Assembly (NCBI GenBank): GCA_944385595.1 | Contig: CALWXY010000062.1 | Coordinates: 1-32,232 of the forward strand | Length of the DNA stretch: 32,232 bases | Direction: 5' to 3' | Source of the DNA: an uncultured Oscillospiraceae bacterium | GTDB taxonomy: Bacteria > Bacillota > Clostridia > Oscillospirales > Oscillospiraceae | Shown here: piece by piece, positions 1-14,184 of the stretch | Layout of the letters: each line of letters opens with the position of its first letter | How positions within the stretch are numbered: the stretch's first letter is position 1 | Program-made: the position numbers and the translations under genes | The notes under the pieces: model-generated | Told to the model about the DNA's origin: nothing | Seen by the model: the letters and a program-made list of their open reading frames with translations, nothing else | Database searches by the model: none

Positions 1-7
1 TCGCCCC

Positions 8-45
8 AAAAATCGACTAGCTTCGCCAGAAGCTGGTCGATTTTT
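8..45. terminator. Long hairpin flanked by an A-run and a T-run (bidirectional intrinsic terminator candidate)
   Basis: AAAAATCGAC-t-AGCTTC-gcca-GAAGCT-g-GTCGATTTTT. Two nested perfect arms, with A5 upstream and T5 downstream. Confidence 0.5.
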
Positions 46-49
46 CCTT

Positions 50-128
50 ATTCACTCTTCACTATTCACTCTTCACTGACCTGATGGGTCGATTTTTGGA
101 AGTGAATAGTGAATAACGAATAGTGAAA
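50..128. repeat. Inverted arrays of a 7-bp unit around a 23-bp spacer
   Basis: ATTCACT CTTCACT ATTCACT CTTCACT at 50-77. The reverse-complement units AGTGAAT AGTGAAT AACGAAT AGTGAAA lie at 101-128. The spacer contains GGTCGATTTTT (87-97), a second copy of the 3' arm of the hairpin at 35-45. Confidence 0.8.
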
Positions 129-157
129 AAGTGTGGTGTGCCGCTGCGCGGCACGGA

Positions 158-343
158 TTAAATGGCGGCTGGCCCTGCGGGCTTGTCGCTTTTTTCATTT
201 TTCACCGATTTGCCTCGCCGTCTCCCGGCAGTGAATAGTGAAGAGTGAAAAGTGAATAGTGAATAGTTTGGGATGCGGCAAGGCGGCTCGCCGGTCACGA
301 GCAGGCTCAGTATCACCGGATGCTCCGGGCAATTTCTGTACAA
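158..343 (-). CDS. Hypothetical 61-aa ORF, or a non-coding leader, of the leftward transcript
   Basis: TTG at 343 lies 6 nt after AAAGGAGG and downstream of the consensus leftward promoter. The TAA stop (158-160) is followed by hairpin GTGCCGC-tgc-GCGGCAC (138-154). Against coding: codons are not GC3-rich like all neighbouring genes, the ORF runs through the heptamer array, and I recognise no family. Confidence 0.25.
   Translation of the reverse strand: MYRNCPEHPVILSLLVTGEPPCRIPNYSLFTFHSSLFTAGRRRGKSVKNEKSDKPAGPAAI
230..264. repeat. Third heptamer array (5 tandem AGTGAAW units)
   Basis: AGTGAAT AGTGAAG AGTGAAA AGTGAAT AGTGAAT, read directly from the sequence. Confidence 0.8.
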
Positions 344-354
344 GCTCCGCCTCC

Positions 355-433
355 TTTATGATTTTTCGTAATTTCATCTTCATATTACACGCAAATTCAT
401 AATTTGTCAACGCTAATTTATGATTTTTCGTAA
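355..433. promoter_or_regulatory. Candidate operator set: a 17-bp direct repeat bracketing the leftward promoter, plus a palindrome inside its spacer
   Basis: TTTATGATTTTTCGTAA occurs at 355-371 and again at 417-433 (identical). The palindrome CAAATT-cat-AATTTG at 392-406 lies between the -35 and -10 of the leftward promoter. Confidence 0.45.
382..410 (-). promoter_or_regulatory. Leftward sigma-A-type promoter
   Basis: On the minus strand: TTGACA (410-405), a 17-nt spacer, then TAATAT (387-382). Confidence 0.6.
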
Positions 434-441
434 AAATTCTG

Positions 442-469
442 TTGACAATCGGCAAAGCTATGATATCAT
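442..469 (+). promoter_or_regulatory. Rightward sigma-A-type promoter of the repressor gene
   Basis: TTGACA (442-447), a 16-nt spacer, then TATCAT (464-469) with a TG extension at 461-462. The TTG of this -35 box is the false start used by the ORF track. Confidence 0.55.
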
Positions 470-490
470 CAAATCAAAGGGGTGATATCA
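461..490. promoter_or_regulatory. Two copies of the self-complementary octamer TGATATCA, spaced 22 bp apart
   Basis: Copies at 461-468 (over the -10 box) and 483-490 (abutting the ATG at 490). Candidate autoregulatory sites. Confidence 0.35.
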
Positions 491-1227
491 TGTTCGGCTC
501 AAGACTGAAAGCGCTGCTCGACGAGCGCGGCATAAAACCCAGGGATTTCGCCCGCCGCGTCGGCATCCACGAGCAAACTCTCTACAGCCTCATCGACAGG
601 GACGGCAACAAAATCGACCTCGACGCGCTCCGCCGCGTCTCACACGAGCTCGACATCCCCATCCCCATCCTCTGCGGCGAGGACGGCGACGGGCAGCTCA
701 GCCTGCGCGAGTACGATATGCTGAACAAATTCCGCGCTCTCGACGAACACGGCAGGCGTCTCGCCGAGCTGGTCGTCGACGCCGAGCTCAGCCGCGTCTC
801 CGCCGAAAGCGAGCCGGAAAGCGCGAAAACCAAAATCATCCCCCTCTACGCGACGCCCGCCGCCGCGGGCTACGCAAACCCCGCCCTCGGCGAGGATTAC
901 GAGGACTACGCCGTCCCAGCCGACAGCCGCGCCGATTTCGCCGCCCGCATCAGCGGCGACAGTATGGAGCCCTTCATCGAGGACGGCAGCATAGTCCTCG
1001 TCAGCCGCAGCCAGCCCATCAGCGTCGGCGACGTCGGCCTCTTCTTCGTCGACGGCGATATCAAGTGCAAGCAGTACTGCGAGGACAGCTTCGGCAACGT
1101 CTACCTCTTCTCCCTCAACCGCGCGCGGGCCGACGCCGACACCACCATCCCCGCCAGCAGCGGCATAACCGTGTTCTGCTTCGGCAGGGTGCTGCTCCCG
1201 AAGCGCCCGCCGCTCCCGGACGTATGA
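490..1227 (+). CDS. cI/LexA-type repressor: XRE-family HTH fused to an S24 self-cleaving peptidase domain
   Basis: HTH segment GIKPRDFARRVGIHEQTLYSLI. Ala-Gly site in PAAAGY, catalytic Ser in GDSMEP and Lys in DIKCKQY, at LexA-like spacing. ATG 490 lies 5 nt after AAGGGGTG. Confidence 0.85.
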   Translation: MFGSRLKALLDERGIKPRDFARRVGIHEQTLYSLIDRDGNKIDLDALRRVSHELDIPIPILCGEDGDGQLSLREYDMLNKFRALDEHGRRLAELVVDAELSRVSAESEPESAKTKIIPLYATPAAAGYANPALGEDYEDYAVPADSRADFAARISGDSMEPFIEDGSIVLVSRSQPISVGDVGLFFVDGDIKCKQYCEDSFGNVYLFSLNRARADADTTIPASSGITVFCFGRVLLPKRPPLPDV

Positions 1228-1233
1228 TAGAAT

Positions 1234-1277
1234 GAAAAAAGCGCCTGAGATGGCAAGCCATCTCAGGCGCTTTCTTT
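1234..1277. terminator. Bidirectional intrinsic terminator between the convergent repressor gene and the last tail gene
   Basis: A7, then GCGCCTGAGATGGC-aa-GCCATCTCAGGCGC (perfect 14-bp stem), then TTTCTTT. Confidence 0.85.
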
Positions 1278-1860
1278 ATGTCGATATCTTTTTCGTGAAA
1301 TCGTAGGCCTCGAACTCCCACCAGCTCAGCTCGAGGGCGTCCAGCTCGCCCCAGGTCAGCCCGGCGGACTCGATGTCGTTCCAGCTTGGGTACAGGAAGA
1401 AGTAGCTGACGTTCAGATGACAGGGCAGTATGTCCTCTATGCGCTTCGACAGCTCCGCAAAGTCGGGCGGCACGCCGCGCACATCCTCGAAGTGCACCAG
1501 CACCGTCATCGGCTCCGCGCTCTCCTCCGCCACGGCGGTGAAGCCGGAGCCGGAGAGCGTGTCGTTCAGCGCCGCCTGGGTGAAGCTGCGCCCGTCGATC
1601 CGCATCAGCGCCGCTATGGCGAGGCGTCTGCCGTCCGCGTCGCTGCGGAGCGGGCGGTAGGGGAACAGCTCCTCCCAGGCCGTGAGGCCGTCGTCCTGCG
1701 CCGTCGCGAGCAGCATCTCGCGCAGCGCCGTCTCGGCGCTGTCGAAGCTGAGGTCGAGCACCTCGCCCACGACGTTCAGCTCCTCGCCGGAGCGCCCTCC
1801 GTCGAGCCGGTAGACTCCGAGGGGTCTCAGCAGCTCGCGCATGTTGTCGGCGTAGCCCAT
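1276..1860 (-). CDS. Baseplate/tail protein, XkdU/YmfQ (DUF2313, Mu gp48)-like; last gene of the cluster
   Basis: 194 aa, lying directly after the baseplate-J gene as in PBSX-type clusters. Assignment rests on position, size and general sequence character only. Confidence 0.5.
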   Translation of the reverse strand: MGYADNMRELLRPLGVYRLDGGRSGEELNVVGEVLDLSFDSAETALREMLLATAQDDGLTAWEELFPYRPLRSDADGRRLAIAALMRIDGRSFTQAALNDTLSGSGFTAVAEESAEPMTVLVHFEDVRGVPPDFAELSKRIEDILPCHLNVSYFFLYPSWNDIESAGLTWGELDALELSWWEFEAYDFTKKIST

Positions 1861-1861
1861 A

Positions 1862-2911
1862 CTAAGCCCCCATTTCCGTTATCGTGAGCGTGCCGAGCGT
1901 CGGCAGCACGCCGTCCTGCGCGGCTATGTCCGCCGCCGGGGCGGTGATGCGGTAGTTCGTCACGCCCTCGGCTGAGAACAGCGCGCGGCCTATCTCCGCG
2001 AGCAGCACCGGCCTGCCCAGCATGGCGCCGGTGAACATCTCATACAGCGCGGCCTCGGCGGCCGCCTTCGCGCTCTCGAAATCCCCGCTCTCTATCTGGA
2101 CGCTCACATTCGTCTGGCTCAGCTGCGGGGCGCTCACCTCTATGTCGACGCATATCTCGCGCTGCGACTGCAGGCGCAGCTCCACCTCGCTCACCGTGGC
2201 GCTGTCGGGCGTGCCGCTCTCGGCGGCTATCACGACGTCCACGGTGCCGACGCCGCGGCGCTTCGGCAGCACCTGCACGGCGAAAACGCCGGGCACCGCC
2301 AGCGCCTGCGCCTCGTAGTAGGCGATGTTCGCGCCGTTCGGCAGGCTGCTGTAGCTGTCGAGTATCCTCGCGCGGAGGCTCTCGTCGTCCTCGCCGGCGC
2401 TGCCGCCGGTGAACGGCTCCGGGTTCTGACAGCCCGTGACGCCCACCGGCGGGTACGGCATGTAGCAGATGGCCAGCGCCGGGGCGTTGCCGCTCTCGCC
2501 GCCGCTCACCGCCTCGGCGGGCAGGTCGCAGTAGAGCGCCCCCGCCTCTATCGCGCCCGCCTCGGTCACGGCAAACTCAGTGCCCGCCGCATCCGTGCAG
2601 ATGACGCCCGCCTCTATCGCGACGGGCGAGTCATGCGCCTCGTCCACGAAAAAGCGCAGAGTGCCCATGGCCTTCGTCGCGCCGCCGCGCTCAAGGCCGC
2701 GTATTCCGGCGTGCAGGTCGAGATACTCGCCCTGCGCCGTCTGCGGAAAGGCCTGCCTGCGCGAGAACTCAAGCTGGTTCTCAAGCGCGAGCACCTGTGC
2801 CGCAAAGGCGTAGAACCTCAGCGACATGTCCCCGCCCGGACGCAGCACCAGCGAGCAGCGGCTCTCGTATTCCTTCGCCATCTCGGCGTAGATCTCGTCT
2901 ATGGTTCTCAT
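1862..2911 (-). CDS. Baseplate J-like wedge protein (XkdT-like)
   Basis: About 349 aa following the gp25-like gene. ATG 2911 lies 6 nt after GAGG; the TTG at 2923 in the ORF track is unlikely to be the start. Position and size fit the Baseplate_J family. Confidence 0.7.
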   Translation of the reverse strand: MRTIDEIYAEMAKEYESRCSLVLRPGGDMSLRFYAFAAQVLALENQLEFSRRQAFPQTAQGEYLDLHAGIRGLERGGATKAMGTLRFFVDEAHDSPVAIEAGVICTDAAGTEFAVTEAGAIEAGALYCDLPAEAVSGGESGNAPALAICYMPYPPVGVTGCQNPEPFTGGSAGEDDESLRARILDSYSSLPNGANIAYYEAQALAVPGVFAVQVLPKRRGVGTVDVVIAAESGTPDSATVSEVELRLQSQREICVDIEVSAPQLSQTNVSVQIESGDFESAKAAAEAALYEMFTGAMLGRPVLLAEIGRALFSAEGVTNYRITAPAADIAAQDGVLPTLGTLTITEMGA

Positions 2912-2919
2912 TGCACACC

Positions 2920-3261
2920 TCAAATCACAGTCGTAATGTTCAGGCTGTCGCCACCGGCGGTGAGGCTCAGCTCAAGGCGCAGGCCGTCCTCGGTCTCGCT
3001 GAGCTGCAAATCCTCGAGGACGACGTCCTCGCCCTCAAGCGCCTCGGCCACGAACTGCCTCGCGCTGCCCTCGCGCTCGCTGGGGCGCATGGAGCTGAGC
3101 GTGTAGAGCCTGCTGCCGTAGTCCGGCAGCACCGCAAGTCCACCGCGACGCGCCGCGAGGCGCAGCATCAGGCGCTGGGCCAGCTCCTCCGAGCCGGTGA
3201 CGCTCTCAAGGTCGTGATATTTTCCGGCGGTGTAGTCGCCGTCAACAAGCTTCAGCTCCAT
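2920..3261 (-). CDS. gp25/GPW-like baseplate wedge protein (XkdS-like)
   Basis: 113 aa lying between the spike and J genes. Its start shares one base with the upstream stop (TGATG). Confidence 0.6.
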   Translation of the reverse strand: MELKLVDGDYTAGKYHDLESVTGSEELAQRLMLRLAARRGGLAVLPDYGSRLYTLSSMRPSEREGSARQFVAEALEGEDVVLEDLQLSETEDGLRLELSLTAGGDSLNITTVI

Positions 3262-3686
3262 CAGAGCACACCCCCGTTCGGCTCGTATTTCTCGCCGTTC
3301 ACATAGAGGCTGCCCTCTATGCGGACGGTGCCGTTCAGCCCTATCTGCCCGCCGGTTATGCTTATGCTGCCGTCGGCGTTTATGGTGCAGCTCCCGCCGG
3401 TGATGGTGCAGCTCGAGCCGGCTATCTTCACCTGCTCCGGCACGCCGCCGTCGCGCTGGGCAATCACGCCCGCGACGATGGCCTCGCCCTCGTCCGTCGT
3501 GAGCAGCAGCACCCTGTCGCCCAGCCTCAGGCCGGAGGAAAAGCCCGCCGGCGAGGCCAGTGTGAGCGAGCGCTTCTCGCTCTCGGTCAGCACGGCGACG
3601 GACGCCCCGCCTATGCTGACGGTGCCGGTCTCGGCGCGCACCGGCGCGGAGCCGCCGCCGAACTTCATTTTCTCAGAAATCCACAT
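3261..3686 (-). CDS. Baseplate central spike / assembly protein V-like (XkdR-like N-terminus plus a repetitive beta-helix-like C-terminus)
   Basis: 141 aa. C-terminal repeats are SSCTITGGSCTINADGSISITGGQIGLNGTVRIEG. AAAGGAGGAG lies upstream of the ATG. Confidence 0.5.
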   Translation of the reverse strand: MWISEKMKFGGGSAPVRAETGTVSIGGASVAVLTESEKRSLTLASPAGFSSGLRLGDRVLLLTTDEGEAIVAGVIAQRDGGVPEQVKIAGSSCTITGGSCTINADGSISITGGQIGLNGTVRIEGSLYVNGEKYEPNGGVL

Positions 3687-3690
3687 GTAC

Positions 3691-4623
3691 TCACTCCTCC
3701 TTTATGAGCCGCAGCACGGTCTCGCCGGATTCGGCGTCCGCCGTGCAGCGGCTCTCGGCCACGAGATAGCGCCCGCCGCCGCCCAGCGGGGTCGACGGCA
3801 GCAGCACAATGTCGCCCGCGAATGCCGGGAACATCAGCGGCAGCGTCAGCTCCGTGACGTCCATCTCCCGCTCCGACTGCGCTATCTGGTACTCGCCGGT
3901 GTAGCGCATCGAGTCGTAGAGCGTGTAGCGCGGGACGTTCACCACCCGCCTGCACAGGCAGCCCAGCTCTATGGCCTCCGGGTTCTCGACCACGGTGGAT
4001 ATGCCCGCCGGGTTGTTCTTCACCAGCACATGCGAGAACACCCCGCTGCGCCGCCTGATCTCGCGCTGGCGGACGACGGCGGCGGAGCCGAGGTCTATCT
4101 CGCCGCCCCGCTCGCCGGTGAGTATCAGCCTGCCGCGCCTGTCGAAGCGCGGCTCCACGCCGCCGCCGAAAAAGCAGAAGTCGCGCAGCACCTTCCACTG
4201 GCTCGAGCCGGAGGATATGGGGAACCTGCCCCGGCAGCTCATGGCGCTGTAGCTGACCTCGCTTATCCGCCAGGGATAGACGTGCCGCTCCAGTATCAGG
4301 TCTATGCCGGGGTCCCAGTACTCGGCGCTCTCGGCCTCGTTGTCGAGCAGATACGCCGCCCGCCCGCGCCCGGAGAGGCGCGCCGTCGCGCCGGAGGCGT
4401 CGGCAGACAGCTCGTACTCGTCGACGACGCCGCGAAACACCGTCTCGCCCTCGTGGGTGCACAGCAGCTCGGAGGCGGCGGTAAGCGTCTCCGCGAGGCC
4501 GTCGACTATGGGGAAGCTCAGCTCAAAGGCGTCGCAGTCCCAGATGCTGTGCACTATGTCCCAGGCGAGCAGCACCGGCATGGCCGACATGTTCCCCTTT
4601 GCGTCATATATGTAAGCCTCCAG
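3691..4623 (-). CDS. Baseplate hub protein, XkdQ/YqbQ (gpD-like) family; probable CTG start
   Basis: Follows the LysM protein as in PBSX. The in-frame upstream extension LEAYIYDAKGN begins at CTG 4623-4621, 6 nt after GAGGGGGG. The first ATG is at 4590. Confidence 0.55.
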   Translation of the reverse strand: MEAYIYDAKGNMSAMPVLLAWDIVHSIWDCDAFELSFPIVDGLAETLTAASELLCTHEGETVFRGVVDEYELSADASGATARLSGRGRAAYLLDNEAESAEYWDPGIDLILERHVYPWRISEVSYSAMSCRGRFPISSGSSQWKVLRDFCFFGGGVEPRFDRRGRLILTGERGGEIDLGSAAVVRQREIRRRSGVFSHVLVKNNPAGISTVVENPEAIELGCLCRRVVNVPRYTLYDSMRYTGEYQIAQSEREMDVTELTLPLMFPAFAGDIVLLPSTPLGGGGRYLVAESRCTADAESGETVLRLIKEE

Positions 4624-4635
4624 AAAAATCCCCCC

Positions 4636-5181
4636 TCAGTAAATCCGCACGGTGTCGCCCGCCGTGAGGAGGTTGGGATTTTTAATCTGGGGATTCAGCT
4701 CCAGAAGCTTCTGCGCACCGCCGTAGGCGGCGGCCAGCGTCCAGAAGCTCTCGCCCGGCAGGAGGACGTGCCTGTTCGACTCCGGCTCGCCGTAGCCGTC
4801 GCGCCCGGCCTCGGTGACGTCGCCGTACTGGTCGAAGCTCTCCCAGAACTCGAAGCTGTAGGCGACGTAGTCCTCCGTCGGCACCTCGCGCAGGCTCAGC
4901 TCGACGAAATAGGCGTTGCTCTCCTGCCATATCGGGTGCACCAGCAGCCCCGGGCGGTTCTCGTAGAACACGGTCGCGAGGCGCGAGAACTCGTCGTAGG
5001 CCCCGTCGCCGACAAACTCGCCGCTGCCGCGCAGTATGCGGCAGCTCCTGCCCATGTTCTGCAGGACGTAGGCGCCGAAGGGCACCTTGCGGCAGACTAT
5101 GTCGCGCGAGAACAGCACCTCGTAGGTGTGCGGGTTGTGCGGCCAGATGTAGTTTTTATACCGCATAGGCGTCAGATTCAT
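4636..5181 (-). CDS. LysM-domain tail protein (XkdP-like, tube initiator/baseplate)
   Basis: C-terminal LysM-like segment HVLLPGESFWTLAAAYGGAQKLLELNPQIKNPNLLTAGDTVRIY. Lies immediately downstream of the tape-measure slot. Confidence 0.7.
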   Translation of the reverse strand: MNLTPMRYKNYIWPHNPHTYEVLFSRDIVCRKVPFGAYVLQNMGRSCRILRGSGEFVGDGAYDEFSRLATVFYENRPGLLVHPIWQESNAYFVELSLREVPTEDYVAYSFEFWESFDQYGDVTEAGRDGYGEPESNRHVLLPGESFWTLAAAYGGAQKLLELNPQIKNPNLLTAGDTVRIY

Positions 5182-5192
5182 GGAAAGCCCCC

Positions 5193-5627
5193 CTAGTATT
5201 TCTCAAGCGGCGCGTCGTAGCGGCGGCTGTCGCGCCTGATGCGCTCGGAGTATTCCTCGAGCAGCCTCGCCCTCTCGCCCAGCGAGGCCGCGCCGCCCGC
5301 GGACGCGGCGCTTCCAGTCCGAGCTCCGCCGCCCTCCCCGAAGACGGCGCGCTCCCTCGCGGAGACGGCCTCGCCGCCCGCGAACACAGCCCCGCCCGGC
5401 TCGCGGCGCAGGCTCAGAAATTCGCGCGGCGCCGCGTCCGGCGAGTCCGCGCCGGACGCGCCCTTCAGCAGCGCGGAGGCGGCAAAGCCGCTCTCCGCAA
5501 AGCCCCAGCCCCCGGCGCGGCGGGCATCCGCAAAGTCCCCGCCCGCCGCCGGGGCCGACGCGAGCAGCGCCGCGAGTATCTCGCGCGACAGCTCAGTGAG
5601 CTCCGCGCGGCTCAGTTCAAGCTCCAT
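5193..5627 (-). CDS. 144-aa Ala/Gly/Arg/Glu-rich protein occupying the tape-measure position (candidate mini tape measure)
   Basis: Lies between the chaperone and the LysM protein. Has its own SD: GAGGGAGGG, 8 nt, ATG. The termini look helical (MELELSRAELTELSREILAALL; RARLLEEYSERIRRDSRRY) and the centre is low-complexity. Confidence 0.45.
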   Translation of the reverse strand: MELELSRAELTELSREILAALLASAPAAGGDFADARRAGGWGFAESGFAASALLKGASGADSPDAAPREFLSLRREPGGAVFAGGEAVSARERAVFGEGGGARTGSAASAGGAASLGERARLLEEYSERIRRDSRRYDAPLEKY

Positions 5628-5850
5628 CAGCTCTGCCCTCCCTCAGCCTCTCAAAGCGCAGCCCGTCGAAGGCGGGGTTGAAGCTCGCCTCTCCCCCGCC
5701 CGACTGCTCCGAGAGCAAATGCAGCCCGCATTTGACGACCTCCGCGTCGCTCTGGCAGTAGGGCGCTATGCCCAGACGCCGCGCCACATACCAGCGCAGC
5801 TGCTCCAGAGCGTCGTCGGAGAGCGCCGCGAGCGCGGCGTTCAGTCTCAT
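5617..5850 (-). CDS. Putative tail assembly chaperone (XkdN slot), 77 aa
   Basis: ATG 5850-5848 overlaps the tube-gene stop as ATGA. The upstream 30 codons in the ORF track are an out-of-frame run inside the tube gene. Function is assigned by position only. Confidence 0.4.
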   Translation of the reverse strand: MRLNAALAALSDDALEQLRWYVARRLGIAPYCQSDAEVVKCGLHLLSEQSGGGEASFNPAFDGLRFERLREGRADGA

Positions 5851-6236
5851 GTCTCGGTCTCTATCCTGTGGCTGGCCGTGAGAGTCACCTTCTCGGCCAC
5901 CATGCGGCTGAGCTCGCCGGTCTCGGCGATCTCGCTCCACTGGCAGCCGGTGTAGACGACGCGGCGGTCAGGCTTCACTATGACCAGCGAGAAATCGCTG
6001 AGCGAGTAGAAGTCTATGCCGTCGGCCACGGCCTCGGCGGTGGCGTAGAGCCTCGTGAGCTCCAGCTTGTATGTGAGCTGGGTGGCTATGGTCGCGACCG
6101 GCTCGGACTCGCCGAAGGCCTCGACCACCTGCTCGGAGCGCTTTGCCGTCGCCTTGTAGCTCTGCACGACGGCTATTTTCTTGCCGTCGGCCTCAAGATA
6201 GATGTCGCTGCTTGTGGGAAAACCAACTGTACTCAT
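5847..6236 (-). CDS. Tail tube protein (XkdM-like)
   Basis: 129 aa directly after the sheath gene. AGGAGG lies 6 nt upstream of the ATG. Confidence 0.65.
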   Translation of the reverse strand: MSTVGFPTSSDIYLEADGKKIAVVQSYKATAKRSEQVVEAFGESEPVATIATQLTYKLELTRLYATAEAVADGIDFYSLSDFSLVIVKPDRRVVYTGCQWSEIAETGELSRMVAEKVTLTASHRIETET

Positions 6237-6246
6237 GCTCCGCCTC

Positions 6247-7272
6247 CTATACCGTTATTCTCGCCGCGAGATAGATGTGGTTCAGCCCGTGGGCGACGGT
6301 GAAGCCGAAGCCCACCTCGCAGACTGTCGGGTCGTCTGCCGCCGGCTCGACGGTGACGTCGCCGTAGGAGTCGATGATCTCGCGCGTCACGCGGTCCTGC
6401 AGCTCGATGACCACCTGGGTGCGTATCGCGCCGCGCGTCTGCGCCGTGTTTTTCGCCCTGGAGAAGCGGCGGCGCAGCGAGTCGCGTATGGCGGGTATGA
6501 CCTCGTCGATTATCCGCACGGTGGTGACCTCGCGCCAGGTCGTGTCCTCGACGCCGCCGGTGGTCGTGCGGGTGGTGACGGCGCGGAGCACCGCGGGGGT
6601 GCCGGCCTGATTCTCGATGAGCGTCACGCCGCCGCGCACGAGGGTGTTCACGTCGTCGTCGGAGTAGCGCAGAGAGCAGCCTATGCCGGTGAGGGTCGCG
6701 CCGTTTATGGGCAGAGCCGGGTCGCTTGTCGCGGCAATGACGCCGGTGAGCGCGGCGGCGTAGCTGCCCTTGGCCTCGGCGGCCTCGGCGGCGACGAGCA
6801 CCATGCGCTCGCAGTTGAGCGCCTTTGCCGCCGAGACGAGCGCGGCGGTCTCGCCCGCGCTCTCCGCGACGCCGATGCGGTAGCGGCAGGTCTCGGAGGC
6901 GGCGAGTATGGCCTCCATCATGGCGGAGTGCACGTTGGCCTCGCGGCTGTCGCAGAACATGACGCCTATGCTCTCCGCCTCGCACAGCTCGGCGAAGGCG
7001 GCGGCGTAGTCGGCGGCGTCGGCGTCCTCGCCGACGGCGCGCGCCACCACCGCGCCCGCGCCGCAGCGCAGGGCGACGGCGCACATATCGCTGAGCGAGC
7101 CCTCGCCGAACTGCTCGAGCGCCTGGGCGCTGCTGGTGATCCTCACGCAGCCGAGCTCTGTGCCTTTGGCGCTTTTTGCGGCGCAGCCGGCGTCGCCGCC
7201 GGTGGTCGAGCCGCGCACCGAGCTTGTGACCTCGTAGCTCGAGTACACTCCGGGTCTCTCGTTAAGTGCCAT
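6247..7272 (-). CDS. Contractile tail sheath protein (XkdK-like)
   Basis: The N-terminus MALNERPGVYSSYEV is typical of sheath proteins. 341 aa, followed by the tube gene. Confidence 0.8.
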   Translation of the reverse strand: MALNERPGVYSSYEVTSSVRGSTTGGDAGCAAKSAKGTELGCVRITSSAQALEQFGEGSLSDMCAVALRCGAGAVVARAVGEDADAADYAAAFAELCEAESIGVMFCDSREANVHSAMMEAILAASETCRYRIGVAESAGETAALVSAAKALNCERMVLVAAEAAEAKGSYAAALTGVIAATSDPALPINGATLTGIGCSLRYSDDDVNTLVRGGVTLIENQAGTPAVLRAVTTRTTTGGVEDTTWREVTTVRIIDEVIPAIRDSLRRRFSRAKNTAQTRGAIRTQVVIELQDRVTREIIDSYGDVTVEPAADDPTVCEVGFGFTVAHGLNHIYLAARITV

Positions 7273-7738
7273 GCAGTATCATTCCTTTCACAGTAAATCC
7301 CGTAAATTCGGTCTCGCCGCCCGGCTCGCGCACCAGCCAGAACTGTGCGCCCAGCTCGCAGCGGCAGCGCATACGGCAGAGCTTCGTGTCGAACTCGGCG
7401 GCCCCAATGCCGAGCTCGCCCGGCCCGAAGCCGCCGGACAGCTCGCCGACGGCGAGTATCAAATCGTCCACCGCCGCCGACAGCCCCGCCGAGCCCTCCG
7501 CCGCGGCGGAGTAGACGTCCAGCGCGAACACGGCGCGGCAGCTGAGACCGAACTGCTCGCCGCTCCCGCTCATGCCCATGTAGTCGCCGAAGCCGCCGGG
7601 GGCGACAGTGGCCTTCTTGAGGCAGACGGCCACGGCGGAGCCGTCCGGCTCCGGCGTCTCGCCGGGGAAGGCGCGCACGGCGTGAACGCCGTGCTCAGCC
7701 AGCTCATCCACGAGAGTTTTGGTCATCGCGTCAAGCAT
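7262..7738 (-). CDS. Neck/tail completion protein (XkdJ slot)
   Basis: About 158 aa lying between the head-closure and sheath genes. ATG 7738 lies 6 nt after GGAGGG. Function assigned by position. Confidence 0.4.
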   Translation of the reverse strand: MLDAMTKTLVDELAEHGVHAVRAFPGETPEPDGSAVAVCLKKATVAPGGFGDYMGMSGSGEQFGLSCRAVFALDVYSAAAEGSAGLSAAVDDLILAVGELSGGFGPGELGIGAAEFDTKLCRMRCRCELGAQFWLVREPGGETEFTGFTVKGMILHGT

Positions 7739-8054
7739 TTTCATCCCTCCCCACGCACCTCAGGAGGCACTCGATGTGGTCGAGTCCTCCGCCTGTCATC
7801 AGCTCGCGCCGCACAAGTGCGAAGCGGCGCGAGCCGTCGGTAATGCGCTGTACCTTCTCAGCCTCGCCTATGGCCTCCGCGGAGGCGACGAGCAGATAAC
7901 GCCCGCCGCCTCTGCCGCCCTCCGTCGGAGAGACAAGCGCCTCGCTCGTGAGATCCAGAGGCTGAATGAAGCCGCGCTCGACCCGCCCGGAGGGGCTGAG
8001 GTCGCTGAACACGGTGAATTTCCCGGCAAAGCGCTCTATAAGCTCAAAGTTCAG
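7731..8054 (-). CDS. Head closure / head-tail adaptor protein (start uncertain: CTG 8054 or GTG 8012)
   Basis: Only the C-terminal ~107 codons of track ORF 7731..8459 look protein-like (GLNFELIERFAGKFTVFSDL...RYLLVASAEAIGEAEK...). The N-terminal part is an Arg-rich out-of-frame overlap of gene 8051..8416. Confidence 0.4.
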   Translation of the reverse strand: MNFELIERFAGKFTVFSDLSPSGRVERGFIQPLDLTSEALVSPTEGGRGGGRYLLVASAEAIGEAEKVQRITDGSRRFALVRRELMTGGGLDHIECLLRCVGRDENA

Positions 8055-8416
8055 CCCCTCACCCCCCGGAAGTCGAAGCCGCGCTCGGTGAGCTGGGAGG
8101 CGAGCATCTCCTCGGCGAGGGCGCGCAGCGAGTCGGAGAAGTCCCCGCCGCCTCGCGTGAGCGTCAGCTCGCCGACACGCACGGAGCTGAAGTCCCCGCC
8201 GCCGACGGCGGAGTACATGGACAGCGCGAGCACGCCCGCGGCGGTGACGAAGTCCTCCTTTATGTCCTCGACGCTCACGCCGCTTCTCAGGCGCGACTCG
8301 AGATTCGCCGCCGCGACGGCGCAGAGCGCCGAGAGGGTCTGGCGTCCGCTCTCGCTCAGCTCGCCGCCGAGAAACAGCTCGGCTCTGTCGAGCACCTCGC
8401 CCTGCAGCTCCATCAC
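8051..8416 (-). CDS. Head-tail connector protein (gp6-like)
   Basis: About 120 aa immediately after the capsid gene. Its start overlaps the capsid stop (GTGATG). Confidence 0.45.
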   Translation of the reverse strand: MMELQGEVLDRAELFLGGELSESGRQTLSALCAVAAANLESRLRSGVSVEDIKEDFVTAAGVLALSMYSAVGGGDFSSVRVGELTLTRGGGDFSDSLRALAEEMLASQLTERGFDFRGVRG

Positions 8417-9420
8417 GCGTTCTCCAGGACGAGGGCGGCCTCGGTGTAGATTTTGGCAAAGCCCGCGGTGCTGGTGATGGCGGCGCGCTCGAGCTGGCGG
8501 TCGATGAGCCTGTCGTACTCGACGCTCACGTCGCCGGAGCGCACCATCTCGAGGGCGTAGCCCTTGTCGAGGCCGATAATCTGGCCCTCGGGAACGCAGG
8601 CGCTGCGGATAATCTTGGCGCCAAGGGGCGAGCCTATGTCGCCGCTGCCGGCGAAGTTCAGCCCGGCGACAGGGTTGCGCAGCTCCTCGATTTTGAGCAG
8701 CTGGAGCATCATGTCGGGGGACACGAGCATGGTGTTGAGGGTGTAGGGCTCGAACTTGCCCCAGAAATCGACGAGCGTGTCGTAGCTGAGAGCGCTGCCG
8801 CTCACGACCTCGGCTGCGTTGTCGTTGCCGTCGCCGTTTATGAGGACGTCGATGGCGTCGGCGAGGTGCATCTTGGCGATGTGGTTGCCGATCTGGCGCA
8901 GCATGACGGAAAAGAGCTCAAGGCGCTGGAAGCGTATGGCCTCGTAGGAGGCGACGAGCATTCTGCCGCGCTTGTGCAGGGGGATGAGCTTGTCCTGGGC
9001 GCGGATCTCGGTCTGGGGTATGGCCGCTCCCTCGGCGACGTGGGTGAGGCTCTTCTCGTCCTCGCTGGGCAGGGAGGCGACGGCGCGGTAGTCGAGACCC
9101 TCGATTTTGGTCGTGGTGGCGACTATGCCCGGCAGCACGTTGCTCTCCTCGATGCCCTGGCGGACGCTGCGGGAGACGTACTCGGGAAACAGTACGGCGC
9201 TCTCGGAGCTGTGGAAGAACTTCTCGACCTTGTCGCTGGACGCGCCGCGCACCTTTATGCCGAAGCGCTTGAGCTGGCGCTGATATGCGTCAAGACCCTC
9301 GAGCGCGGTGCCGCGGTACTCCTCGGAGGGGTCGAGCTCCTCCAGGATAGCGGAAAAGCCCTTGCCCGCGACGCTGTACATGCCCTTGTCGAGCTTAACT
9401 TCGTTGAATTTATAAGCCAT
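8413..9420 (-). CDS. Major capsid protein (HK97-fold type)
   Basis: 335 aa following the protease and decoration genes. ATG 9420 lies 9 nt after AAGGAGG. The C-terminal segment EYDRLIDRQLERAAITSTAGFA is typical of this family. Confidence 0.8.
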   Translation of the reverse strand: MAYKFNEVKLDKGMYSVAGKGFSAILEELDPSEEYRGTALEGLDAYQRQLKRFGIKVRGASSDKVEKFFHSSESAVLFPEYVSRSVRQGIEESNVLPGIVATTTKIEGLDYRAVASLPSEDEKSLTHVAEGAAIPQTEIRAQDKLIPLHKRGRMLVASYEAIRFQRLELFSVMLRQIGNHIAKMHLADAIDVLINGDGNDNAAEVVSGSALSYDTLVDFWGKFEPYTLNTMLVSPDMMLQLLKIEELRNPVAGLNFAGSGDIGSPLGAKIIRSACVPEGQIIGLDKGYALEMVRSGDVSVEYDRLIDRQLERAAITSTAGFAKIYTEAALVLENA

Positions 9421-9434
9421 GTGTTGCATCCTCC

Positions 9435-9773
9435 TTAAAGCATGATGGTGGCCGAGCCGGTCTGGACGTCGAGCACGAGGCGCTCTCTGCCGCTGGTGCC
9501 GCTGGTGATGCCGCCGTTTGCGTCGGCGTTCAGCTTGGCGTAGCCGGGGGTGAGGGTGCCGGAGCAGGCGGCGGTGACGCAGCCGGCGAGCTGCACGCAG
9601 GCGCAGCCGGCGCGGCAGCTGAGCACTATGCCGACGAAGTCCTCGCCGCTGGCGCAGGCGGTGACCTCGGCGGCGGCGCTGATTTTGACCGGGGTGCCCG
9701 GCGCGATATCGGCGCCGCTTGCGGTGCCGAAGGTCGCGGTGACGGAACCGATGCCATCAAAAGAATACTTCAT
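9435..9773 (-). CDS. Small Cys-rich head protein (DUF2190-like decoration/cement protein candidate)
   Basis: 112 aa lying between the protease and capsid genes. AGGAGG lies 9 nt upstream of the ATG. Confidence 0.35.
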   Translation of the reverse strand: MKYSFDGIGSVTATFGTASGADIAPGTPVKISAAAEVTACASGEDFVGIVLSCRAGCACVQLAGCVTAACSGTLTPGYAKLNADANGGITSGTSGRERLVLDVQTGSATIML

Positions 9774-9786
9774 TTATAAATTCCTC

Positions 9787-10701
9787 CTATATAATGTAGT
9801 CCTCTCCGTCGAAGCGGGTGTTTCTGTCGCGTCCGGGGAGCTGGCAGAGCGGCGGGAAGCGGCCGTCGAGCTTTTTCTCGAGGCTGAGCCTCAGCTCGCA
9901 CAGCTCCTCCGCGCCCATGCCCTCCGCCGCCTTGGCGACGGCGGGGGCCATCTGCTCATCCCAGAGCAGGCCGAGGCGCTTTACCTCCGCCCGCTCGCGC
10001 TCGAGCAGGCGCTCGCCCTCGGCGGCGAGCTTCTCAAGGCGCTCGAACTCGGCGCGAAACGCGCTGCCCGCCGCGGTCTGTACATAGCCGCGCAGGGATT
10101 TAAGCCCCGCACCCTTGAGCACGCCCGCCTCGCGCTGGGCGGGCACGGCGACGAAGCTCCACTCGTAGGCGTCGGTCGCGCCGGAGAGCACGGTGTGGCA
10201 GAGCTTGCCGTCGTAGCTCAGTCCCGGCACATGCGCGCAGGCGCTCTCGCCGCAGATGCTGCACCGGCGCTCGGACACCGAGCAGCCGACGCTCGTCTCC
10301 TTGACTATGCCCGCCTCGATGGCGGCGATGAAGTCGCCGGTGGCCTCGCTGCGGAGCATGTAGGCCCAGCCCTTGAGATAGCGGTAGACGTCCCCGGCGG
10401 AGTTTTTGCGCTCCGGCACGGCGACGACCTCGGTGCGGTAGATCCGCGCGAGCTGACCGCCCGCCGTCCACTGGTGGTCGAGTATGCCGCTCTTGCCGAC
10501 GAACATGGGCGCTAGCTCGTCGAGGCACTCGTCGGAAAAGCGCTCGAAGTCGCGGTCTACCTCGTTGTCGCAGAGCTTGACCTCAAAGACGTAGACCTCG
10601 TCGGCGCTGAGGGCGCGCTTTGCGAGGGCGTTAATCAGCTCCAGCTCGCGCGCCGCGGCCTCGCCGGCAACCGGAGCGCCGGCGGCCTTTGTGACATTCA
10701 T
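9787..10701 (-). CDS. Prohead protease fused to a coiled-coil scaffold-like C-terminus (XkdF slot)
   Basis: ATGA overlap with the portal stop. The N-terminal domain is followed by a charged helical tail (RAEFERLEKLAAEGERLLERERAEVKRL). Lies between portal and capsid. Confidence 0.55.
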   Translation of the reverse strand: MNVTKAAGAPVAGEAAARELELINALAKRALSADEVYVFEVKLCDNEVDRDFERFSDECLDELAPMFVGKSGILDHQWTAGGQLARIYRTEVVAVPERKNSAGDVYRYLKGWAYMLRSEATGDFIAAIEAGIVKETSVGCSVSERRCSICGESACAHVPGLSYDGKLCHTVLSGATDAYEWSFVAVPAQREAGVLKGAGLKSLRGYVQTAAGSAFRAEFERLEKLAAEGERLLERERAEVKRLGLLWDEQMAPAVAKAAEGMGAEELCELRLSLEKKLDGRFPPLCQLPGRDRNTRFDGEDYII

Positions 10702-11852
10702 ATGGAAGCCTCCTTTTCTCCGGCCTCAGCCAGATATTTTTTAGCCTGGGCGGCATACAGCTCCGCCCTTGCGAGCTCGACCTTGTCCTGCAGGTTCACA
10801 GACTCCCACACCGGCTCAAACGAGCAGGCGTAGCCGTGCATCCTCAGCCAGAGCGAGCATATCCGCCTCACGACGGGGTCGAGACTGCGCCGGTGGGCGC
10901 TGATCTCGCTGGTCATGAGGTCGGCCTGCTGCGAGGACATGCGCTCGGTGGAGCTCCAGTTCAGCCCCAGCATGAAGGGCGGAATGCCCGTGCGGGCGAT
11001 GAGCTGCTCGAGTATCTGCCTCACAGGCACCTCGCTGTCGAGCACCTGGTTGTCCGCGCCGATGACGCGTATGTCCACGTCGCCGACGGCGACGAAGTCG
11101 CGCACGGCGCCGGAGCGCGTCTCCTGCATGGCGCTGCTCCACTCGCGAGCCACCGCCTCCGCCCGCTCGGCGGCCCCGCCGCGCTCCGACAGCTCGCCCG
11201 ACGGACGGCAGACCACCGCGTAGCGCAGGTTGCCGCAGCGCTCCCAGTTGACGCCGATGGAGGTGAAGATCTTCATCAGAATGTCGGTCAGGAAGGGCAT
11301 GCTCCGCAGCATGGAGGAGCCGTAGGGGCTGTCGGGGTCGGGGTTGAACGGCGTGAACAGCAGCAGATCCTGATACGGCAGCGGGCGCGGGTCGAGCGAG
11401 TCGTTGAGGCAGATGGCGAAGTCCAGCGGGCTGCGCCCCTCGCGCACGCACACGTCGGCGACGTTGCCGCAGATGAGGGCGGCGATGTCGCGGTTTCCGG
11501 CGGTGACTATCTCGCCGACGGCGCGTCCGCTCGTGATCATCGAGTCGAGATAGGCGTCGAGAAACGAGCCTATGCCGCGCCCGCCGCGCCCGGTGTCGAC
11601 GGTGCGGAGGAACTCGTTCAGCTCGCGCTCGGCGCGCGCGTCGGAGCACTTCGCGGTGACGCCGCCGGTGAGGCGCACGAGCTTTTGTATGGCGGCGTCG
11701 ACCACCGGCACGCCCTCGCGTATGGCGCGGTAGAGGCGGGTGTCGCCCCCGCCGAGCGGCACATAGCCGTCGAGGGTGGTGAAAGGATGCCTCGCGCCGG
11801 CTCTCAGCTGCGCCCTCGCGGCGGTGTCCTTTCCTTTTTGAAACAATCTCAT
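10698..11852 (-). CDS. Portal protein
   Basis: 384 aa. ATG 11852-11850 overlaps the terminase stop as ATGA. Lies between the TerL and protease genes. Confidence 0.7.
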   Translation of the reverse strand: MRLFQKGKDTAARAQLRAGARHPFTTLDGYVPLGGGDTRLYRAIREGVPVVDAAIQKLVRLTGGVTAKCSDARAERELNEFLRTVDTGRGGRGIGSFLDAYLDSMITSGRAVGEIVTAGNRDIAALICGNVADVCVREGRSPLDFAICLNDSLDPRPLPYQDLLLFTPFNPDPDSPYGSSMLRSMPFLTDILMKIFTSIGVNWERCGNLRYAVVCRPSGELSERGGAAERAEAVAREWSSAMQETRSGAVRDFVAVGDVDIRVIGADNQVLDSEVPVRQILEQLIARTGIPPFMLGLNWSSTERMSSQQADLMTSEISAHRRSLDPVVRRICSLWLRMHGYACSFEPVWESVNLQDKVELARAELYAAQAKKYLAEAGEKEASI

Positions 11853-13132
11853 TTTTCCATCAAACTCCTCCATCCCGTGTTATTTGAGGGTGAGCGGCTC
11901 ACCGAGCATACGGCGAGCGAGGCGGGTTTCGCGGCGGCGAAGCTGGCGGCGAAGTAGCGCATGTCGTCCATGGCGTGATCGTTCTGCTTGAGCGGCCTGT
12001 CCGCGCCGCCCGGCTCCCAGCAGTAGAGAGACAGCTCGCGCAGGGTGTCGGCGCAGTTTCGGCAGATGACGAGCCTGCCCGTGCGGAGCAGCTCGGCGGT
12101 GAGGCGAATGCCGCTCAGCACGTCGTTTTTCGCCTTCATCACGGGCAGCCCGGCGCGCGAGAGCGCCTCCATGAAGCTAGCCGCCGACGGGTCGACGATG
12201 ACGGCCTCCACCTTCCGGTGCGCGATGAGGCGGATGAGCTCCGAGACGTACTCGCCGTCGGTCATCTGCCTGCCCTCGCGGCGCGAGTCGAAGTAGAACT
12301 CGTCGATGCGGTACCACACTCCGCCCTTCTCCGCCCAGAGGCCGAAGGAGGCGGGGTTCACCGTGCCGTAGTCGCATGAGACGGCATAGCGCTCGAACGG
12401 CCCGTCCGGCACATCCGCCGCCATGGACTCGTCGAAGAAGTCGTACACCCTGCCCTCGGCCTGCACCCACTCGCCCAGCACGAATCGCCTGTAAAACGCC
12501 CCGGAGTACATGCGCGAATACCGCTCGAGCATACGCTTCGAGAGCGTCGGGTTGTCGCTCATCTTGAAGCGTATGTAGAGGGCGCGCCGCTCGCGGGCCT
12601 TGAGTATCCACTCGCGGTAGAACCAGTGCGAGGGCGACTCGGGGTTGCAGTTGAACCAGAGCTTTGCCCCTTCGACGGAGCAGCGGGCAATCGCCTGCTC
12701 GACGAAGCTGCGCGGCATGAGCGCCACCTCGTCGAGCAGAACTCCGGCCAGCGTCACGCCCTGGATGAGCGCGCGCGAGCTCTCGTCGCGCCCGCCGAAG
12801 AGGTAAAAGGTGTTGCGTCTGCCGCCGAACTCGACGACCACGCGGTTTTTCGAGACCTTGTCGCAGCAGGCGAAGCCGAGCGAGCGCAGCGAGGGCAGCA
12901 GCTCGTCGAGCAGGTTGCGCCTGAGCGAGACTATGGTCTTGCCGCAGAGGCCGAAGCGCTCGCCGTCAAAGCAGCGCATCGCCCAGATGATGAACGACAG
13001 CCCCATACACATGGTCTTGCCGCTGCGCACCGCTCCGTCGCAGATGATGGCGTCGAGCGAGGCGTAGGGCGAGGAGGGGCTGTGCCAGGTGAGCACCTTG
13101 AGCTGCTTCGGCGAGAAGCGCTCAATCCGCAT
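11849..13132 (-). CDS. Terminase large subunit (PBSX XtmB-like)
   Basis: Walker A motif in CDGAVRSGKT, 427 aa, with an acidic nuclease-type C-terminal half. GGAGG lies upstream of the ATG, inside the end of terS. Confidence 0.9.
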   Translation of the reverse strand: MRIERFSPKQLKVLTWHSPSSPYASLDAIICDGAVRSGKTMCMGLSFIIWAMRCFDGERFGLCGKTIVSLRRNLLDELLPSLRSLGFACCDKVSKNRVVVEFGGRRNTFYLFGGRDESSRALIQGVTLAGVLLDEVALMPRSFVEQAIARCSVEGAKLWFNCNPESPSHWFYREWILKARERRALYIRFKMSDNPTLSKRMLERYSRMYSGAFYRRFVLGEWVQAEGRVYDFFDESMAADVPDGPFERYAVSCDYGTVNPASFGLWAEKGGVWYRIDEFYFDSRREGRQMTDGEYVSELIRLIAHRKVEAVIVDPSAASFMEALSRAGLPVMKAKNDVLSGIRLTAELLRTGRLVICRNCADTLRELSLYCWEPGGADRPLKQNDHAMDDMRYFAASFAAAKPASLAVCSVSRSPSNNTGWRSLMEK

Positions 13133-13445
13133 CTCCGCCTCCGAGCGCCGCGGCTGCGCTGTCGAGCGCCGTGACGAAGCTCTCCGCCGGGTTGGACTCG
13201 GCGTCGAGCATCCCCGCCAGCAGCTTTAGCAGCTCCAGCCGGTTGGTCAGCCTAATCTCAACGGCGCCGCTCGGCGAGCGCTTCAGCTCGGAGATGTGGC
13301 GCAGATCCAGCTCGTCAATGCCGCTCAGCTCCTCCGGCTCGAGATAGAGGAGCTTCACGGCGTCGTTGCAGCCGCCGAGTGCGAGCTGGGCGAGCGCCGA
13401 GACCAGGTCGGCCTTTTTGATTTTCTTCTTCAAACCATCGATCAC
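13122..13445 (-). CDS. Putative terminase small subunit
   Basis: 107 aa, first gene of the cluster, overlapping terL by 11 nt. GAGGTG lies 4 nt upstream of the ATG. Function assigned by position and size. Confidence 0.5.
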   Translation of the reverse strand: MIDGLKKKIKKADLVSALAQLALGGCNDAVKLLYLEPEELSGIDELDLRHISELKRSPSGAVEIRLTNRLELLKLLAGMLDAESNPAESFVTALDSAAAALGGGDAD

Positions 13446-13476
13446 CTCTCACCCCTGCGCCCAGCACCGGCATTTT

Positions 13477-13529
13477 TTGCACCGTCATGTGCAAAGCGCG
13501 GAAAAATTTTTTCTTTTTCGGCGAAAAAG
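13477..13529. promoter_or_regulatory. Two perfect palindromes in the terS/tetR divergent intergenic region (candidate operators)
   Basis: TTGCAC-cgtcat-GTGCAA at 13477-13494 and CTTTTTCG-g-CGAAAAAG at 13513-13529. Confidence 0.4.
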
Positions 13530-13545
13530 CGCCCCCGCGCCGCTC

Positions 13546-13574
13546 TGGACAGAGGAAAACGGCTGTGCTAAACT
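13546..13574 (+). promoter_or_regulatory. Promoter of the TetR gene
   Basis: TGGACA (13546-13551), a 17-nt spacer, then TAAACT (13569-13574) preceded by TGc (extended -10). Confidence 0.5.
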
Positions 13575-13603
13575 GTTCTTGATTGCAAAAACGGAGGTCA
13601 GCC

Positions 13604-14149
13604 ATGCAGGCCAACACAAAACAGCTCATAGCGGATAAATTCAGCGCGATGGCGCGCCAGCGCAGCGTAGACCGCATAACGGTCAAGAATCTGGTCGAGG
13701 CCTGCGGCATCTCGCGCCAGACTTTCTATTACCATTTTCAGGATATAACCGACGTCATAGAGTGGTCGGTGCGCCGCGCGTCGGAGCGCACCCTGCGCGA
13801 GAGCGTCACGGCGGCGACGCCGCGCGAGGCGCTGGAGCGCTTCATCGCCAGCGCCTCGGAGCACGGCCCCCTGCTGATGCGGCTGCTCAGCTCGCAGCGC
13901 CGCGAGGAGGTCGAGCAGATTATGACCGATTCTGTGCGCGGCTACCTGCGCGAGCTGTTCCTCGTGAAAGCGCCGAAGCTCTCGGCGCGGACGAGCATGG
14001 GCGATATGGAGACGGCGCTCGACTTTCTCGCCTTCGGCATCACCGGCATACTGCTCAAAAACTGCCTCTCCGGCGAGGTCGACGCCCCGGCCCTGGCCGA
14101 CAGGCTCCTGCGCCTCATAACGGGCGAGATGTTCTCGCCGGAGAAATAG
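13604..14149 (+). CDS. TetR/AcrR-family transcriptional regulator
   Basis: N-terminal HTH ITVKNLVEACGISRQTFYYHFQDI. ATG 13604 lies 6 nt after GGAGG. 181 aa. Confidence 0.85.
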   Translation: MQANTKQLIADKFSAMARQRSVDRITVKNLVEACGISRQTFYYHFQDITDVIEWSVRRASERTLRESVTAATPREALERFIASASEHGPLLMRLLSSQRREEVEQIMTDSVRGYLRELFLVKAPKLSARTSMGDMETALDFLAFGITGILLKNCLSGEVDAPALADRLLRLITGEMFSPEK

Positions 14150-14150
14150 G

Positions 14151-14184
14151 AAAACCCCGAAGTGTTTTTACACTTCGGGGTTTC
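14151..14184 (+). terminator. Intrinsic terminator after the TetR gene
   Basis: AACCCCGAAGTG-ttttta-CACTTCGGGGTT followed by T. Confidence 0.7.

Follow-up and report, generated by a model that had tools for sequence, protein, structure and literature searches.

What serves as the tape measure of a contractile tail when the interval between its tube gene and its LysM/hub genes holds only two short open reading frames (ORFs)? The question is raised by a phage-type gene cluster on contig CALWXY010000062.1 of an uncultured chicken-gut Oscillospiraceae bacterium (assembly GCA_944385595.1), of which we analyzed the whole stretch of 32,232 nucleotides (nt), hereafter the window (64% GC). An uninterrupted run of phage-type genes occupies about 12 kb of its minus strand (1276-13445), and the two ORFs in question encode proteins of 77 amino acids (aa; 5617-5850) and 144 aa (5193-5627), with coordinates, strand, and lengths as a first-pass annotation of the sequence had given them. 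Tape measures of contractile-tailed phages have several hundred residues, some of them over 1,000, and the way in which they control tail length, a textbook mechanism, is known from rulers that are long and helical. The 144-aa gene lies 3' of the tube gene, between a chaperone-like gene and the hub and initiator genes, which is the position of a tape measure, and we think it reasonably probable that its product is the miniature tape measure of a compact, phage-like particle that combines a head with a contractile tail. Such a particle would probably have the shortest contractile tail yet proposed. If so, it would put to the test both how short a functional sheath–tube machine can be and whether a ruler can consist of a disordered chain, questions of interest to research on tail assembly and on gene transfer agents (GTAs) of the gut.

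The slot protein and its relatives

The 144-aa ORF is preceded by the Shine-Dalgarno sequence GGGAGGG (5636-5642, minus strand), 8 nt 5' of its ATG, and an in-frame stop five codons before that ATG blocks any upstream extension; the strength of the Shine-Dalgarno sequence and the conservation of Met1 in homologues indicate that the ORF initiates independently. Its GC content at third codon positions (0.88) is similar to that of the adjoining genes and typical for coding sequence of this genome. Four residues account for 58% of the protein (31 Ala, 19 Gly, 17 Arg, and 16 Glu of 144), a richness that mirrors the GC content of the genome; the middles of AT-richer relatives are rich in Glu, Ser, Thr, and Lys. 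AlphaFold2 places helices at residues 7-23 and 116-137, the latter holding the motif LEEYSERIRRDSRRYDAPLEKY, and assigns a predicted local distance difference test (pLDDT) score below 50 to most of residues 28-112, a prediction of disorder that is built on a shallow alignment of five sequences. The features that the first-pass annotation had read from the letters, namely a Shine-Dalgarno sequence of the ORF's own, an Ala/Gly/Arg/Glu-rich composition, and helical-looking termini, were thus all borne out.

A scan with the window's gp43-like protein, taking one genome per species, found relatives in 335 species-level genomes. We fetched the loci of the best 80, nearly all of them labeled Oscillospiraceae or carrying no family label, in which the cluster proteins range down to about 30-50% identity with those of the window. 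Gene order (large terminase [TerL], portal, major capsid protein [MCP], sheath, tube, slot, gp43, hub, baseplate J, gp48) is kept in 80 out of 80. The tube-to-gp43 interval measures 430-1,530 nt among these loci, and the ORF that ends at gp43 is 135-294 aa long throughout and always carries R(R/E)D.RR(Y/F)D....(Y/F/L); relatives' starts were taken from the longest ORF, so that slot-protein lengths are upper bounds. None of the 80 fetched loci contains a long slot gene. Direct homologues of the 144-aa protein are few and all 141-153 aa long, and a hidden Markov model (HMM) search of 1.84 billion representative proteins returned 30 matches, of which the genuine ones measure 125-202 aa and three long ones align solely through the low-complexity middle. 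The same synteny recurs in contigs of a Candidatus Heteroscillospira metagenome-assembled genome and of other metagenomes. The element is very common among Oscillospiraceae of the gut, and its cultured carriers make the question of tail length directly testable; these are Flavonifractor plautii ATCC 29863, with a slot protein of up to 186 aa, Pseudoflavonifractor capillosus ATCC 29799, with one of 170 aa, and Flintibacter muris DSM 110149, with one of up to 229 aa.

Position and relatives (135-294 aa in about 80 clusters) therefore support the miniature tape measure that the annotation had proposed, its function as a ruler being a part that we infer. The same loci bear on the idea that a long tape measure was deleted, leaving a prophage remnant in decay and with a defective tail. 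The shortness of the interval, and nothing more, speaks for such a deletion, but the short gene has conserved ends and an intact frame in all 80 genomes fetched, the flanking structural genes are all intact, and the third-position GC content is that of coding sequence. The 80 loci, together with the exhaustive HMM search, led us to reject the deletion of a long tape measure, and we regard a decaying remnant as very improbable. The comparison of lengths across homologous clusters, suggested at the outset as a way to overturn the miniature tape measure, turned up neither a long tape measure nor a deletion.

Chaperone genes upstream of the slot

The designation of this interval as a tape-measure slot draws on the chaperone genes of the relatives. 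The G/GT chaperone frameshift is conserved immediately upstream of tape measure genes, as Xu et al. reportedly found in 2004. Three arrangements occur ahead of the slot gene, which we also call the RRYD gene after its C-terminal motif. In type i, that of the window, a single T-like ORF of 75-91 aa precedes an RRYD protein of 139-178 aa; in type ii, a G-like ORF of 125-145 aa overlaps a T-like ORF of 85-97 aa in the -1 frame, and the RRYD protein measures 157-252 aa; in type iii there is no chaperone, and the gene for an RRYD protein of 211-294 aa directly follows the tube gene. The RRYD gene is the next gene downstream of the G/GT pair in type ii. All seven type ii loci that we examined in detail, from high-GC genomes, carry A_AAA_AAA in the overlap of the G-like and T-like ORFs in the -1 frame (L006, 10686-10773; L029, ~9127; L064, ~9193; L035, ~8919; L085, ~9172; L008, ~8087; L037, ~9232). 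An A7 or A6G heptamer lies between tube and gp43 in 37 of the 43 loci with an interval of at least 900 nt, the background being 0.25 per kb, and two loci that lack the heptamer (L012 and L060) have an in-frame G–T fusion. Because type ii relatives have a frameshifted G/GT pair just upstream of the short gene, we take the slot in the window to be the tape-measure slot.

The 77-aa ORF of the window, which starts in an ATGA overlap with the tube stop codon (5617-5850, minus strand), aligns to the T ORF of L006 (E = 7e-9), and its tblastn matches fall inside T ORFs; type ii T-like ORFs often encode a CxxC...CxxC zinc ribbon, whereas the 77-aa protein has none. No G ORF is present in the window, nor are two ORFs joined by a -1 frameshift at a heptamer. 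Since the 77-aa ORF matches the T part only, the window type appears to have kept T and lost G. The annotation had offered as an alternative that the two ORFs of the interval are a G/GT pair left behind by a deletion, which fails on this point, only the 77-aa ORF being chaperone-like. By analogy with lambda gpGT, the 77-aa protein could be what is left of the T part of G/GT, standing alone and recruiting tube subunits, in which case the G part, which would coat the tape measure, may have been dispensable or lost in the window lineage.

A related proposal is that the 77-aa and 144-aa ORFs themselves form a G/GT-type pair fused by programmed frameshifting. Their 11-nt overlap is compatible with such a fusion; however, measured against the 77-aa ORF, the 144-aa ORF is read in the +1 frame, stop codons close the -1 frame where the two meet, and the interval contains neither an X_XXY_YYZ heptamer nor an A-run, so that the -1 slippery site suspected at this junction is not there. 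The strong Shine-Dalgarno sequence and conserved Met1 of the 144-aa ORF also argue against a fusion, as does the true G/GT pair of the relatives, which stands apart from the RRYD gene and upstream of it. Frameshift fusion was accordingly rejected on grounds of frame, stops, and the missing slippery site, and we give it next to no chance. Separately, one 217-aa sequence (P0020) joins a sequence of the 77-aa type to the start of the slot protein, then runs out of frame and lacks an RRYD end; a frameshift introduced in assembly or sequencing looks likelier than a natural fusion.

A short ruler and its alternatives

How might so short a protein set the length of a tail? In 30 diverse sequences of the family, the amphipathic helix at the N-terminus and the helix at the C-terminus can be aligned, and the middle cannot. 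The C-terminal helix has the consensus (L/M)E..S..(I/L/F)RRDSRRYD....Y, in which, by window numbering, R135, R136, and Y137 are invariant; S127, R132, D133, D138, and Y144 are nearly so, as is M1 at the other end of the protein. In the sub-clade of the window, the slot protein measures 142.5 ± 6.3 aa (n = 13), and pairwise alignments of the middle region there contain about 35 gap columns, yet the mean net difference in length is only about 7 aa. Length is thus conserved without conservation of sequence, as would be expected of a spacer or ruler. The tube protein (57-97% identical across the family; 4,571 database clusters) and the MCP (50-82% identical; at least 8,000 database clusters) are far more conserved family-wide than the slot protein.

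We propose a mechanism on the model of the gene transfer agent RcGTA and of contractile tails whose structures have been solved. The conserved C-terminal helix (RRDSRRYD...Y) would anchor the protein, probably as a trimer, in the hub and in the gp43-like initiator; the spacer, disordered and kept in length but not in sequence, would run through the tube lumen; and the conserved N-terminal helix would mark the site at which the tube is capped by the tail terminator or by neck proteins. Polymerization of tube and sheath would then end after some 4-8 rings, giving a tail of about 20-40 nm. Location in the lumen, trimeric state, ruler function, and tail length are what we infer from this analogy. 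The helical rule of 0.15 nm per residue predicts a tail of about 22 nm for 144 aa, and an extended spacer of up to about 0.35 nm per residue sets an upper bound near 40 nm, which corresponds to roughly 4-10 rings if the ring rise is taken as about 3.8-4 nm; applied to the whole family (135-294 aa), the helical rule predicts about 20-45 nm. By comparison, dwarf myoviruses, which are noted for short contractile tails, have tails of about 81 nm (PMC3391216). A short ruler in a small phage-like particle has a precedent in RcGTA, whose tape measure g11 (Rcc01694) comprises 216 aa and whose tail has five tube discs with a pitch of 38.3 Å (PMC7296036). In the searchable literature, we found no precedent for a short tape measure in a contractile tail.

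Several observations weigh against a miniature tape measure. A classical tape measure is a long, helical coiled coil built on periodic repeats, and the AlphaFold2 model of the 144-aa protein contains no helical or coiled-coil rod with such repeats. The protein is a member of none of the known tape measure families (PhageMin_Tail, TMP_2, TMP_3, Tape_meas_lam_C, and others, together with PHROG families and solved chains), and neither it nor 30 family members gave any Pfam, PHROG, or PDB-sequence match. A comparison with the tape measure of the Mu-like phage SuMu, for which the C-terminus was inspected and hhalign returned a probability of 0.07, revealed no similarity. When the C-terminal motif was searched with tblastn against 50,697 phage records, only two faecal contigs of the same family were returned, and the motif was not seen at the tape measure ends of isolated phages. 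Slot-protein length varies from 211 to 294 aa within the chaperone-less sub-family, which is loose for a strict ruler. The conversion from residues to nanometers is also uncertain, as the rule assumes a helix and the middle two-thirds of the protein are predicted to be disordered. Finally, the literature searched holds no particle image, proteomics, or tail measurement for any member of the family.

Two faecal contigs of about 43% GC (L015, 9517-10519 in MT835952.1; L016, 7620-8643 in MT836604.1) have no sheath match, and their TerL and MCP are 55-59% identical to those of the window. In both, a protein of 119-121 aa is followed by a slot peptide of 42-49 aa bearing the C-terminal motif ERESRRYS, and then by the LysM/gp43-like gene; the 119-aa protein of L015 gave no tube-like signal by BLAST or hhalign. 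The length of these peptides fits an arrangement in which the C-terminus would serve as an anchor and the remaining protein would scale with tube and sheath. If this is confirmed, the anchor helix would be the ancestral core of the family, with the N-terminal helix and spacer accompanying the sheath–tube tail.

The same peptides can be read differently. If only the C-terminal helix matters, the 144-aa protein could be a hub plug, a tube-initiation factor, or an ejection factor, and tail length would be set in some other way, such as by terminator kinetics, or not be fixed at all. That the C-terminal motif is the sole part kept in the sheath-less peptides would agree with such a role, as would the disordered and unalignable middle and the spread of 83 aa within one sub-family. 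However, the N-terminal helix is conserved too, from Met1 onward; length is held near 142 aa in the window sub-clade despite many indels; and sheath-bearing members are all at least 135 aa long, whereas the sheath-less ones fall below 50 aa. We consider a plug or initiation factor unlikely, though a serious contender.

A further possibility, which would leave the 144-aa protein as an accessory, is that a long tape measure is encoded in a second operon. The related-looking candidate gene transfer agent of Faecalibacterium (FpGTA) is split over two operons, and the window cluster contains no tail-fibre or lysis genes, so that the genes for some functions must lie outside it. In tails of the Mu, P2, and PBSX types, on the other hand, the tape measure gene always lies between the chaperones and the hub genes, a slot that is filled here; the frameshifted G/GT pair of the relatives sits directly upstream of the short gene; and the 20-kb loci that we examined contain no long tape-measure-like ORF. 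A tape measure gene at a second locus, as in the split FpGTA, would count against the 144-aa protein as ruler, but we regard it as distinctly unlikely.

The miniature tape measure thus remains our preferred reading, and a bolder version of it can be formulated. The slot protein could be a ruler of a new kind, consisting of two anchoring helices and a disordered spacer under length selection, in domesticated 12-kb particles with head and contractile tail that are widespread in gut Oscillospiraceae (candidate contractile GTAs or headed tailocins) and whose tails, of about 4-8 sheath rings, would be the shortest contractile injection devices known, with the ruler reduced to a 45-residue plug in the sheath-less relatives. 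We advance this version tentatively, at somewhat less than an even chance.

The cluster, its flanks, and known counterparts

Upstream of the slot, the minus strand encodes a small-terminase candidate (13122-13445), the large terminase (11849-13132), the portal (10698-11873), a 304-aa scaffold or protease candidate (9787-10701), a 112-aa virion protein (9435-9773), and the MCP (8413-9429). Three small proteins of 121 aa (8051-8416), 107 aa (7731-8054), and 160 aa (7262-7744) are putative head-tail joining or tail-completion proteins on the basis of position and conserved synteny, to which the last adds a match to phrog_25177. A contractile tail sheath of minimal size follows (341 aa, 6247-7272; Pfam Phage_sheath_1C, E = 3e-12; PHROG tail sheath, 3e-28).

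The adjoining 129-aa protein (5847-6236) matches phrog_27038 (E = 6e-54) and has no Pfam match; as a tube, it gave no signal by sequence, either in an hhalign comparison with the SuMu tube or in a profile search of the PDB. At a Foldseek probability of 1.0, its AlphaFold2 model (pLDDT 75; predicted template modeling score 0.65) matches Hcp and the tubes of phage 812, phiCD508, diffocin, monocin, PVC, and RcGTA, and because of this fold comparison we identify it as the tail tube. Every homologue of this tube protein in public records is annotated as "hypothetical."

Downstream of the slot lies a protein with a Mu gp43-like (DNA_circ_N) N-terminal domain and a C-terminal LysM domain (4636-5181), which occupies the position of XkdP and is a candidate tube initiator or hub adaptor. 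It is followed by a baseplate hub of the Mu gpP/gp44 and XkdQ type (3691-4590; phrog_177, E = 7e-18, with a weak GpP-like_1st match), a central spike candidate in the position of Mu gp45 (3261-3686; phrog_25991, E = 4e-10, with a weak beta-helical trimerization match), a gp25/Mu gp46-like sheath initiator of the baseplate wedge (2920-3261; weak Pfam Sheath_initiator and PHROG baseplate matches), a Mu gp47-like Baseplate J wedge protein (1862-2923; Pfam Baseplate_J, E = 3e-43), and, as the last gene of the cluster, a Mu gp48-like baseplate protein (1276-1860; Pfam Phage_Mu_Gp48, 7e-8; phrog_521, 9e-21). The neighbors that the annotation had named around the slot agree with these assignments, which rest on Pfam and PHROG for the sheath, the LysM/DNA_circ_N protein, and the gpP-like hub, and on Foldseek for the tube.

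Beyond the end of the cluster, and convergent with it, lies a repressor with a helix-turn-helix and a LexA/CI-like peptidase S24 domain (442-1227, plus strand), a candidate SOS-linked regulator. The flank on the other side encodes TetR, FtsH, 6S RNA, PBP1A, dGTPase, DnaG, and RpoD; given the 6S RNA (16288-16495, minus strand, between FtsH and PBP1A; Rfam RF00013, 64 bits) and the dGTPase, DnaG, and RpoD genes (plus strand, 14.2-23.8 kb), we take this flank to be core chromosome. No integrase, replication, lysogeny-establishment, tail-fibre, receptor-binding, holin, or endolysin gene was found in the cluster, which is embedded in host sequence and made up of structural and packaging genes only, as is characteristic of GTA- or PBSX-like particles. 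By its gene content, it resembles a PBSX-like or GTA-like particle that has been domesticated. L024, L040, L053, and L095 likewise have cellular genes on the flanks of the cluster, and an S24 repressor also adjoins it in L001, L002, L017, L018, L038, and L057; PBP1A and S24 neighbors are common only to the Heteroscilispira-like clade (L001, L017, L018, and L020), and other genera have different cellular flanks. In L001 and L017, a small sigma-like gene and a GH25 lysozyme lie about 2 kb past the repressor, and in P. capillosus (L024, 13909-14810) a 152-aa CBM5/12 protein and a holin directly follow gp48. Metagenome and RNA-labeled runs over the window yielded fragmentary multi-strain contigs and no usable expression or packaging signal, and the literature that we searched on short contractile tails, short tape measures, and Flavonifractor GTAs or particles does not describe the window cluster.

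Among known systems, SuMu has the same order of sheath, tube, chaperones, tape measure, gp43, gp44, gp45, gp46, gp47, and gp48, but its gp42 tape measure has 787 aa as compared with 144 aa in the window. Mu gp42, SuMu gp42, and PBSX XkdO all share with the window protein its slot in the Mu/P2/PBSX-like tail order; the window protein is 5- to 9-fold shorter than the tape measures of this group and, unlike them, is predicted to be mostly disordered and has neither a peptidoglycan hydrolase nor hydrophobic segments. The tail genes of PBSX follow an order of the XkdK-M-N-O-P-Q-R-S-T-U type, as in the window. PBSX of Bacillus subtilis likewise groups its packaging, head, and contractile-tail genes in one chromosomal cluster that lacks replication genes, and an adjoining S24/HTH repressor is common to both; however, its tape measure exceeds 1,000 aa, its tail measures about 200 nm, and its cluster spans about 28 kb with tail-fibre and lysis genes, whereas the window cluster spans about 12 kb and has neither.

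RcGTA shares with the window a short tape measure, a small particle, a C-terminal helix of about 20 residues, and a domesticated cluster of structural genes only (PMC7296036). Its tail is non-contractile and siphovirus-like, in contrast to the sheath and Mu-type baseplate encoded here, and in its tape measure an N-terminal helix of 113 residues carries periodic repeats and is accompanied by a beta region, whereas the window protein is shorter and has a disordered middle.

FpGTA is encoded by a 10.5-kb operon and a second operon, and forms 40-nm capsids containing about 9 kb of DNA (Borodovich et al. 2026, PMC12946183). By its description, it is similar to the window cluster in coming from gut Clostridia of a neighboring family and in having a compact operon without replication genes, the operon comprising small terminase (TerS), TerL, portal, scaffold, MCP, and small proteins. 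FpGTA particles have no visible tail and are called podovirus-like, and no sheath is reported for them (PMC12946183). The sheath-less contigs L015 and L016 may have this tailless or podovirus-like architecture of the FpGTA type, and would be more likely counterparts of FpGTA than the window cluster is. A search with the capsid protein of the window returned at least 8,000 matches, of which the best 120 are Oscillospiraceae, Clostridiales, or unnamed and include no Faecalibacterium. GTA-like packaging of bacterial DNA has been detected in faecal viromes for Ruminococcaceae and Oscillospiraceae, with no Oscillospiraceae operon found (PMC12946183), and the window cluster is an obvious candidate for the Oscillospiraceae packaging genes behind that signal.

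Metagenomes, mainly from the guts of chickens, birds, and others, contain sequence nearly identical to the window (1-14200), as does one sludge sample. The closest named genome is that of Candidatus Heteroscilispira lomanii from chicken, whose gp43-like protein is 84% identical to that of the window.

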